The position numbers are program-made. A DNA stretch of 19,879 bases from a virus (lineage: Duplodnaviria > Heunggongvirae > Uroviricota > Caudoviricetes). Positions 6,001 through 9,000 of this stretch are shown one piece after another; within the stretch, counting starts at the first letter, position 1; every line of letters starts with the position of its first letter. Location of the stretch: IMG/VR virus record IMGVR_UViG_2681813223_000009. One strand, 5' to 3'.

Positions 6001-9000
6001 CCCGTCAACTGGTTGCTGAGGTTCAGCCGATATGGCACCCGTTTCAGGTGAGAGAATGAACGATAAAATTCTCTGGTATATGCAGCGTGTTGTGAGAAAT
6101 TCCCGCAACCCTGAATTTATGAATGAAGTTAAAGACGCCTGCCTTAAAAAGCAGGCGTTTTGTTTTGAGGCACCTGATGGCTTTTTGGTGCTGCGTTCTG
6201 TGCTCAGTGCTGATGGTATCCCTTATGTTCTGGTGTTGCTGGGCGTGTGTACGGGGAGTAACAGCGTTGAGCGTTACCTGCCGGAGGTGAAGACATTAAC
6301 CCATCTGGCTGGCGGACGCTGGGCTGAGTTCCATACGGCAAGGCGGGGATTTATCCGGCTGGGAAAACGACTGGGCTTTGAGCGAATGCCGGATGATGAG
6401 GATGGCTTCATGGTGTTCAGGATAGCGGTCTGACTGCTACAGTTTTCATCATTGTGTTTAAACCAACATTGTAATTCACATTCTGACCCTGCTCCGGCAG
6501 GGTTTTTTGTTATCCAGGGGGCCATTATGGGTGGAAGTAAAGGCGGTGGTGATACCAAAGTAAAACCAACAGCAGCGCAAATAGCACAGGAAGAAGTGGC
6601 CTGGAAAGGGTGGCAGGATTACAAAAATATCCTCCGCCCGGCTGAAGATAACTTCATGGAAAAGGTCGATGACCTGAACAGTGAGCAGCAGTACGACAAT
6701 ATTGCTGGCACCACAAATCTGGGGTATCAGAAACAGTTTGGCGAAGCACGGAAGGAGCTTGCGGGTAATCTTGCTCAGTCCGGCGTTGACCCATCCAGTG
6801 GTCGTTTTAATGCGGTAATGAATGCGAACCAGAGTGACCAGGTAACCGGGCAGATTGACACAACCACACGGGGGCAGGTATCGCAGGCAGATAAGTATGT
6901 TGCCGGGCTACAGGATGTTGCTGCTCTCGGTTCTGGTCAGAAGGCGGATGCGTTACAGAGTTTTAACTCTCTGGCAGACAGCAGTCTGGCAAAAGCTAAA
7001 TCGGATGCACAGGCGGCGTTTACGAAACAGCAGGGGCGAGCCTCTCTTGTTGGCGCTGGTCTGGGTGCGGCAGGTGCATATGCGATGCATAAGGCTGGCG
7101 GTAGCGGAGGAAGTGGCGGTGCTAAAACACCTGGCACCGGCGCTAATGCCATTCAGCATCAGGCTCAGAACTGGAGACTGTAATTATGGAGTATGGCAAA
7201 TACGAAACTCTCGCAAGGGCTGGTTATTCAGGAGCAGACCGCCCACAGGGTGACTGGCAGACGTCAGCAGCGCTGACACGCCAACAATACGACGACTGGC
7301 GAACCAGATATTTGCCCCGCGTGGCAAGGCTGGCTGACCTTGGGGAGAACAACAGTCTGATGAATGCACAGCTTGCACGGGTGGGAGGCCTTGCCACTTC
7401 CAGTCTCCGTACAGCGCAGATGGCGCAGGATAACCAGATGGCGAGATACGGGGTAAACCGCCCGGATAATCCCGACAGTAATACGCTGGGGTTACGTAAT
7501 GCCCTGGCAATTGCTGGCGCGAAAAATGGTATCCGTGAAGCCGAACAGGATCGCCAGATGAATATTCTGACGGGGGCTTCTGCACCGGCAAGACAGAAAC
7601 TGAGTGTTGGCGGCCAACTGGTGGCAGCGTAAGGGGGCAATATGGGATACGGTTTACTGGATATTGCAAATCAGTCGCGGCGTGAGGCATTACAGGGAAT
7701 AAGTGACGCAGACAGACGACGTGAAGAAATTGAGGCTGCGAACAAACAGATGGCGGCGCAACAGAAAGCGCAGAACAAGCAGAATATCGGTACGGGCATT
7801 GGTACGGGGGCGGCTATTGGCGCATCCGTTGGTGGTCCTGTTGGTGCTGTTGCTGGAGCAGTAATTGGCGGCATTGCTGGTTCTTTGTTTTAAGGAGTGG
7901 TGAATGAGCGGATTTGCACAGGGGTTACTTGCCGGATTCAGCACCGTTGACCAGGCAATGACCCGTCGTAAGGAGCTTGGTCTGCGTGAAGCACAGCTTG
8001 CCCGGCAACAGAAAAATAACGAGCGCGATTTTGAGTTTGCGCAGTCTCAGTTTGAACATAATAAAAACGTTGATCAGCGGAACTTTGATTACAGAGCCAA
8101 AGTTGACGACCGTAATTATGCACTGAAGGAGAGGGAGTTTAACGCTAACCAGAATTACCGGAATGCGTCACTGGGTATGGAGCAGCAGCGACTCCAGTTG
8201 CAGAAATACAACCAGCGACGGCTTGAGTATAACGATATGATTGCCCATAGCCAGCCACTAATGGAAGCGCTTGGAAAAGCAATTGAGGCTGGCGATCAGG
8301 AGGCTGCAACGCGTCTGTTCGGGCAGCTGCCAAAGGGACATCCATTAATTCTTATGTCAAACGAAGGCTATGCAGCGAAAGCGGGTCAGGCCGTGATCAA
8401 CCTGCAAAAAATCTTTGGTGATAAGCCGGACATGGCGATCGATTCGCTGAATACCCCGGAAAATCTCGATGTGCTTTCCGGCGTGTTTGCCCCGGAACTA
8501 CAACAGCGTATTGGCATGCCTGATTCAACCGGGGACAAAACGATAAAAGAGGCCAGGATTGGCAGTATCGTACCAGCGCAGCAGGAAGGGTACGTACTTA
8601 TTGGCCTTGATCTCACATACAGCGATGGCTCCACCGCGCATAAACCTGTAACAGAATACGGCAGTGCGCACCCTGATGATCAAACCGTGCTGGCGATACC
8701 CGTTGATAAGGCTATCGCTCAGGTCAGGGATCGCAGCAAATTTGCAGAGATATCGAAAAATTATGGTTATTTTATGCCGAAGCAGCAGGGACTTTCTCTG
8801 AAAGAGCTTCAGAAGGGGGCCAGCAACGTAGCGGCGGACGCGATCAAGAATGGCGGTAATGCTCAGGCTGCGGTGGATGAATATTATGCTGCGACTGGTT
8901 CACAACCGCATCAACAGAAAATTCAGCAACAAAAACTTCAGCAACAGGTTATCAACTGGGCGGGAGATGATCCTGACAAGCTGTCATTTGCCAGAAATGT

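Follow-up and report, generated by a model that had tools for sequence, protein, structure and literature searches.

A conserved Rho-independent terminator in front of ORF76 in the late operon of Stx2 phage 933W/Sp5 and its probable role in silencing tail and ejection genes in the lysogen

The viral contig IMGVR_UViG_2681813223_000009 (IMG/VR; Caudoviricetes) was analysed over its whole stretch of 19,879 nucleotides (nt), which is called the window in the following and whose coordinates are used throughout. On the plus strand at positions 6486-6508, in the spacer between the genes L0129/ORF75 and L0130/ORF76 (ORF, open reading frame), a canonical Rho-independent terminator was confirmed from the sequence, and the site is predicted to be active in termination. 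All lines of evidence combined, it is probable that this terminator silences ORF76 to ORF80 in the lysogen and that RNA polymerase modified by the phage antiterminator Q reads through it after induction.

The sequence of positions 6485-6511 reads GACCCTGC-TCCG-GCAGGGTT, followed by TTTTTGTT. Within this stretch the 5' arm ACCCTGC (6486-6492) pairs with the 3' arm GCAGGGT (6497-6503), and G6485 is able to extend the stem by one G-U pair. The arms enclose the tetraloop UCCG (TCCG in DNA, 6493-6496), so that the hairpin occupies positions 6486-6503. Six T residues (6503-6508) and a subsequent GTT form the U-tract (6503-6511), which adjoins the stem directly. The Shine-Dalgarno sequence AGGGGG (6516-6521) and the ATG of L0130 (6527-6529) follow, in agreement with the annotations of 933W and of Escherichia coli Sakai, and the gap between the T-run and the ATG comprises exactly 18 nt (6509-6526). 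A pattern scan scored the hairpin with 8 pairs, G-C in 5 of them, and a loop of 4 nt. The hairpin dominates both the minimum free energy fold and the centroid fold (-13.6 to -14.5 kcal/mol), and it is the sole element of the centroid fold of 6434-6540.

For the statistical evaluation strict terminator criteria were applied, i.e., at least seven perfect pairs, at least five G-C pairs and a run of five or more T directly after the stem. Four such sites were found on both strands of the window and none in 300 dinucleotide-preserving shuffles, while a looser pattern scan yielded 31 sites in the window against an expectation of 20.0 +/- 4.8. The site lies in the intergenic region between the stop codon of ORF75 (6433) and the ATG of ORF76 (6527) and thereby combines a G+C-rich stem and short loop, an adjoining U-tract and an intergenic position on the sense strand at a frequency above chance. 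Read on the minus strand, the stem is not followed by a T-tract, which makes the site unidirectional. A promoter located in the gap that separates T-run and ATG, or one that overlaps the hairpin, was rejected as a candidate: the room amounts to 18 nt, and the pattern scan of 6300-6530 revealed no sigma-70-like promoter. The original prediction had proposed both a strong intrinsic terminator 18 nt before ATG 6527 and the lack of promoter room behind it, and the sequence, the fold, the pattern scan and the shuffles bear it out in these two points. A Term-seq dataset is available for strain Sakai (GSE143631).

The window represents the right arm of the Shiga toxin (Stx) phage 933W/Sp5, as judged from the sequence. 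Over the tested region an identity of 100% was found with the Stx2 phage 933W, with Sp5/VT2-Sakai and with many further Stx phages, and the whole window is essentially identical to 933W save one patch of 10 N. Coordinates of 933W are obtained by adding 39825 to the window coordinate and those of E. coli Sakai (NC_002695.2) by adding 1286784. The genes on the plus strand are ordered L0124/ORF70, L0125/ORF71, L0126, L0127, lom, an unannotated hok-type gene, L0129/ORF75, the terminator, L0130/ORF76, L0131, L0132, L0133/ORF79 and L0134/ORF80. The assignment of ORF75 to ECs1237 and of ORF76 to ECs1238 is confirmed by the supplement of Mondal et al.

The regulatory elements which the proposed read-through requires are located in the same prophage outside the window. 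The Q protein of Sakai (ECs_1203) matches PF06530 with 171 bits, and a promoter-like site is present in Sakai Sp5 at the place matching the late promoter pR'; both Q and pR' are situated about 27 kb upstream of the terminator on the same strand. The transcription start site of pR' and the terminator tR' have been mapped by differential RNA sequencing and Term-seq, and the antitermination logic has been described. Except for bor and one IS629 copy, a single strand is used from Q through ECs_1242. The stretch from pR' to the window holds at least six further strong terminator-like hairpins on the same strand (Sakai Sp5, our locus L167, 2369-19251), placed just after pR', before stx2A, and after each of stx2B, the portal gene, the major capsid gene and ECs_1224. 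Additional terminator-like hairpins of this strand within the window follow lom (5626-5650) and precede the giant gene L0134 (9202-9228). With multiple hairpins along the operon, late transcription must resist terminators over its entire length, and the terminator at 6486-6508 is one in a series rather than a special switch.

Published expression data of the sister phage phi24B are in accordance with a terminator that polymerase passes after induction only. By quantitative PCR, lom (clone CM18) was strongly expressed in lysogens and unchanged by induction, and the giant gene (clone CM7) was induction-linked, which surprised the authors, CM7 being downstream of lom. In RNA sequencing of phi24B after norfloxacin induction, with genes assigned via the phi24B annotation, the fold changes upstream of the terminator were 22.3 (L0124), 15.5 (L0125), 15.8 (L0126) and 15.7 (L0127); lom showed a non-significant change of 3.0, and downstream the values were 8.3 (L0130), 7.0 (L0131), 7.3 (L0133) and 5.6 (L0134). 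The induction, which is about twofold weaker downstream, may result from partial termination, from a higher basal signal or from the time the polymerase needs to travel to distal genes, three causes that these data cannot separate. A same-strand Q with pR'/tR' upstream and, according to this literature, induction-dependent genes downstream are thus both present.

For the comparison of the L0129/L0130 junction about 170 loci were gathered from phage records, viral contigs, genomes and assemblies. The genes L0129, L0130, L0131, L0132, L0133 and the giant gene constitute a conserved syntenic block, which occurs in prophages of Citrobacter, Salmonella, Serratia, Yersinia, Pectobacterium, Brenneria, Edwardsiella and Aeromonas and, with weaker similarity, in Vibrio phages. 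In all relatives, a Vibrio phage among them, L0129 and L0130 are syntenic, and by this comparison the block begins at L0129/ORF75, which appears as its ancestral first gene. The proposal that L0130 is the first gene of the module had to be abandoned, since L0129/ORF75, which precedes the hairpin, is a member of this block in every relative. Three states of the junction can be distinguished. In the first one, represented by 35 distinct distant variants, there is no hairpin and the L0129 stop is separated from the L0130 ATG by 1-19 nt; in a few of these variants L0125 also abuts L0129. The second state (10 variants) is defined by a long hairpin, GAAAGCCCCGA...TCGGGGCTTTC, of about -31 kcal/mol, followed by a membrane peptide of 46-49 amino acids ending in RWW. 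The third state carries the ACCCTGC-type hairpin and is found in Escherichia, Salmonella and Citrobacter lineages. The hairpin-less junction is likely the ancestral state, and the terminator accordingly sits within the block and not before its first gene.

Within the third state the hairpin shows the pattern of an element under selection. Among nine distinct Stx-phage spacers none of 14 stem positions is variable, compared with 28 of 83 positions elsewhere (Fisher p = 0.0055). Across lineages eight loop variants occur (TCCG, CCCG, CCG, TACG, TTCG, TTTG, TCAT and GCCT), and the stem is either unchanged, shortened in both arms (ACCTGC/GCAGGT; CCGC/GCGG) or changed with pairing retained (AACCCTGCC/GGCGGGGTT), at an identity of the L0130 proteins of 55-83% across the hairpin-bearing lineages. 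All hairpin-bearing relatives keep a run of six or seven T, the first of which is always found 24-26 nt before the ATG. As MAFFT did not align the indels of the two arms symmetrically, the pairings were read by hand and with RNAfold. The hairpin is selectively maintained, and the small number of independent events gives moderate evidence that its structure is conserved rather than its sequence.

The sequences upstream of the hairpin differ widely between lineages. In Citrobacter nothing is inserted and the 5' flank comprises 22 nt, and in 933W there is an empty spacer of 53 nt. Other lineages harbor fic/phd on the opposite strand, a yafO-type pair, two genes of 175 and 95 amino acids, a gene of 206 amino acids, or a gene of 102 amino acids with its own terminator in addition to the RWW peptide. 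The hairpin remains beside the ribosome-binding site of L0130 while the upstream cargo differs. This observation suggests, with moderate support from the compared sequences, that the hairpin forms a fixed border on the downstream side of a slot for cargo, and it fits an insulator against cargo-driven transcription into ORF76 to ORF80. Cargo upstream of L0129 and the presence of the hairpin do not correlate perfectly: a distance of 0.5-1.4 kb from L0125 to L0129 is also seen in many relatives that lack the hairpin. As an observation in its own right, the L0129/L0130 junction is a hot spot for cargo (our loci L081, L083, L168, L170, L173, L060 and L139-L153), comprising fic/phd, the yafO-type pair, several unknown genes and, recurrently, the cassette of long hairpin and RWW peptide.

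A candidate that was considered and rejected is a terminator belonging to a moron, an accessory unit composed of lom, the hok-type gene and L0129. L0129 is conserved and syntenic everywhere, and the hairpin is also present in Citrobacter loci without lom or hok. A terminator that is part of an accessory gene is not what was found, given that L0129 occurs in all relatives and the hairpin stays with L0130.

The proposed mechanism builds on what was observed directly in this analysis, namely how the terminator is built, that it is selectively maintained, which phage carries it and in what order the genes lie. Unmodified polymerase that arrives in the lysogen from lom, from the hok/sok-type locus or, in relatives, from other cargo would transcribe the hairpin and be released at the U-tract at 6508. 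It would never reach ORF76 to ORF80, which encode virion and ejection proteins, including the 8.4-kb gene of a polyvalent protein. Polymerase modified by Q processively resists hairpin-dependent termination. After induction, Q-loaded polymerase starting at pR', about 27 kb upstream, would pass this site and similar ones, and the read-through would lead to the expression of ORF76 to ORF80. With an induction-linked giant gene, a constitutive lom and Q and pR' upstream, read-through by Q is the best reading of the data. The part of the original prediction that tied the genes behind the hairpin to the lytic phase by way of Q fits Q, pR', the essential ORF79 and ORF80 and the induction data; its module boundary was wrong, and the read-through at this very site is presumed.

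Several points weigh against this mechanism. Both termination at the site in the lysogen and its suppression by Q are steps that we infer. The absence of the hairpin from the 35 distinct distant relatives with gaps of 1-19 nt means that it is dispensable to the module itself, and the hairpin is also carried by Citrobacter-type loci, in which L0129 and L0130 are direct neighbors, so that it does not merely represent the end of a moron. The pattern scan yielded no strong sigma-70 match for the presumed upstream promoters. Finally, the fold induction of about 8 downstream versus about 16 upstream leaves room for incomplete read-through after induction.

The main rival is compatible with silencing in the lysogen and does not exclude it. 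Here, the hairpin, like that before the giant gene, would act during lytic growth as a dosage element, i.e., as a partial terminator or a 3'-end stabilizer that lowers the expression of distal low-copy genes or protects the upstream mRNA. We consider this unlikely as the explanation of the site. The drop in induction from 15.5- to 22-fold (L0124 to L0127) to the values between 8.3 and 5.6 behind the hairpin would agree with it, as would the similar hairpins after the portal and capsid genes; fold changes, however, are not absolute levels, and both basal expression and the time polymerase takes to distal genes confound them. Moreover, Q-type antitermination is generally known to suppress intrinsic terminators efficiently, and most relatives have no hairpin at the L0129/L0130 junction. 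The rival is further favored by the situation at the giant gene, in front of which nearly every relative carries a hairpin with a U-run, on unrelated stem sequences.

This second terminator-like hairpin of the window, GCCCGGC-cattgt-GCCGGGT followed by seven T (9202-9228, plus strand), ends 10 nt before ATG 9239 and was supported by the pattern scan, the strict scan and the relatives. The start of the giant gene in the Sakai annotation (1296023, corresponding to 9239) follows a GGAG Shine-Dalgarno sequence and agrees with the published length of 2793 amino acids; in 933W the start of L0134 is annotated at ATG 9200, which would make the hairpin part of the coding sequence. In nearly every relative (our loci L053-L162), ranging from Stx phages to Aeromonas with an N-terminus of the giant protein that is only about 25% identical, the hairpin and T-run are located 17-30 nt before the gene (stem end to ATG). 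The stems differ widely in sequence, and within E. coli a double change from G-C to A-T is found (GCCCGGC/GCCGGGT versus GCCCGAC/GTCGGGC). By sequence comparison this hairpin is conserved more deeply than the terminator at 6486-6508. As a tentative extension, the two resident terminators before L0130 and before the giant gene might control access to the genes for ejection proteins throughout a widespread family of prophages with short tails. The expression of these large and possibly harmful proteins would then depend strictly on processive antitermination, and their dosage would possibly be set in this way.

A second alternative regards the terminator as a functionless scar or hitch-hiker, left behind by cargo that was once inserted at a hot spot of recombination and retained by linkage only. 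The junction is an insertion hot spot and the slot upstream of the hairpin is empty in 933W, as this would require, but an invariant stem between variable flanks, kept across lineages whose L0130 proteins share no more than 55-60% identity, with loop turnover and changes in both arms, makes it very improbable. Even less probable is a translation element for ORF76, in which the U-rich tract would serve as S1-binding or standby site and the hairpin would keep the ribosome-binding site unstructured, termination being incidental. The constant distance from the U-tract to the ATG and the conserved context (T6-CATATAAGGAG or T6-GTTATC...GG(A)GG) are consistent with such an element; the G+C-rich stem with a tetraloop and adjoining U6, however, is that of a textbook terminator, and relatives translate L0130 from a bare GGTGA spacer of 7-10 nt. 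A regulated attenuator or riboswitch sensing a signal, which had been offered as an alternative to Q read-through, can practically be dismissed: its sole support is the position before a gene, whereas the fold contains no competing antiterminator pairing (z-score of the region 0.45), no Rfam family matched at the gathering or a relaxed threshold apart from generic terminator-like hits, and the 5' flank, variable among Stx phages and just 22 nt long in Citrobacter, holds no leader ORF or leader peptide.

The genes on both sides of the terminator allow a more precise description of what it separates. L0129/ORF75 (ECs1237; 6056-6433, plus strand) was assigned by PHROG 610 and synteny, and its stop codon is located 53 nt 5' of the hairpin. 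Its true start is likely ATG 6056 instead of the annotated 6032, and the PHROG 610 alignment begins at residue 9. Inside its coding sequence (6135-6158) a hairpin, TGCCTTAAAAAGCAGGCG, followed by TTTTG, was noticed, which is found at the same place in the Pectobacterium and Citrobacter homologs and is perhaps no more than a consequence of the conserved peptide CLKKQAFCF. Systematic in-frame deletions in Sp5, whose primers (Mondal et al., supplement) keep the hairpin intact, place ORF75 outside the essential set. In the same phage deletion of ORF76 (ECs1238; 6527-7183, plus strand), the product of which weakly matches a virion structural PHROG, greatly reduced infectivity and lysogenization. 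L0131, L0132 (a Gly-zipper membrane peptide) and L0133/ORF79 follow on the plus strand (7186-9169), and the block is completed by L0134/ORF80 (ECs1242; 9239-17620, plus strand). ORF79 and ORF80 are essential and required for tail formation. The 2793-residue product of ORF80 contains the domains LPD5, LPD1, MuF_C and LPD38, a signature of injected "polyvalent" phage proteins, and the functional study gave just a hint of a COG1483 ATPase. As a side observation, ECs1242 holds rank 17 among the genes that Tree et al. (2014) tabulated for Hfq crosslinking, with most reads in the apparent antisense column, which hints at abundant antisense RNA within this giant gene.

Upstream, lom with its own terminator (4868-5650, plus strand; terminator at 5626-5650) was identified by annotation and pattern scan; being constitutive in phi24B lysogens, it is taken as a source of transcription in the prophage state. 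It is followed by a hok/sok-type locus (5686-6007, plus strand) which is absent from the annotations of 933W, Sakai and phi24B. The locus comprises an ORF of the Hok family (5835-5975; Pfam HOK_GEF with 33.2 bits at a cutoff of 22, and PHROG 251), and the Rfam sok model matches in the spacer between lom and L0129 with 35.6 bits, i.e., below threshold. The stem-loop at its 3' end (5984-6007) has no T-tract on the plus strand, so that hok-type transcripts may continue to 6508. The intergenic region between lom (ECs1236) and ECs1237 has been reported as transcribed and crosslinked to Hfq in uninduced cultures. An Hfq-bound small RNA derived from the 3' untranslated region and ending at the terminator was also considered and set aside: the ECs1237/ECs1238 spacer is missing from the searchable tables of Hfq crosslinking (CRAC), which is absence of evidence only. 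The published 20-nt RNA 24B_1 of "microRNA size" maps to 5743-5762 on the minus strand. Together with its 80-nt precursor and its promoter (TTGACT/CGCTAACCT), in a minus-strand stretch at about 5830-5716, it is antisense to the hok leader. This is the position expected of a Sok antitoxin RNA, and a hok/sok system appears to underlie the published "microRNA"; neither hok nor sok is mentioned in the 24B_1 literature examined.

Two further features of the window lie apart from the terminator. Between L0122 and L0123 a perfect palindromic hairpin (367-383, both strands) is flanked by T-runs on either side, and a strong minus-strand terminator is found at 815-797, which suggests that a small transcription unit, convergent or independent, lies around L0123. 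At 18656-18665 the 10 N stand in place of 198 bp of 933W, in which the beginning of sokW and the larger part of hokW/mokW are located; this looks like deliberate masking and not like biology.

Comparison with known systems enables a classification of the terminator. With the late operon of lambda-type Q phages (pR'-tR'; phages 21, 82 and 933W) it shares a single long transcript on the same strand, a Q gene (PF06530) just upstream, a Q-modified polymerase that ignores internal terminators, and late genes that are silent in the lysogen. The present site differs from these in being located 27 kb from pR', deep within the tail and ejection genes of a short-tailed phage and not at tR', and in that read-through is deduced. 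Lambdoid morons (Juhala et al., 2000; lom and bor of lambda) are likewise prophage-expressed accessory genes among late genes with a factor-independent terminator as boundary, and lom with the terminator at 5626-5650 is a textbook moron in the window. The hairpin at 6487, in contrast, travels with no cargo gene and is resident on the 5' side of L0130 as the boundary of the cargo slot. Tphi of T7, a partial terminator after capsid gene 10, is comparable as an intra-operon hairpin ahead of genes for low-copy virion or internal proteins; T7, however, has its own polymerase and no antiterminator, and partial termination at the present site is a possibility only. The terminator design itself is standard for lambda-like phages, and boundaries between morons and terminators are well known; the terminator at 6486-6508, its conservation and its behavior at the cargo slot were not found in the literature searched.

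The effect on the biology of Stx phages is modest, because the entire late region has already been assumed to depend on Q. Nevertheless, the terminator would offer a simple explanation for the published puzzle of a constitutive lom directly upstream of strictly induction-dependent genes. It predicts that the tail and ejection genes ORF76 to ORF80 depend on Q, like the Shiga toxin, and it would show how a late operon can take up toxin-antitoxin or virulence cargo without a leak of transcription into the virion genes.

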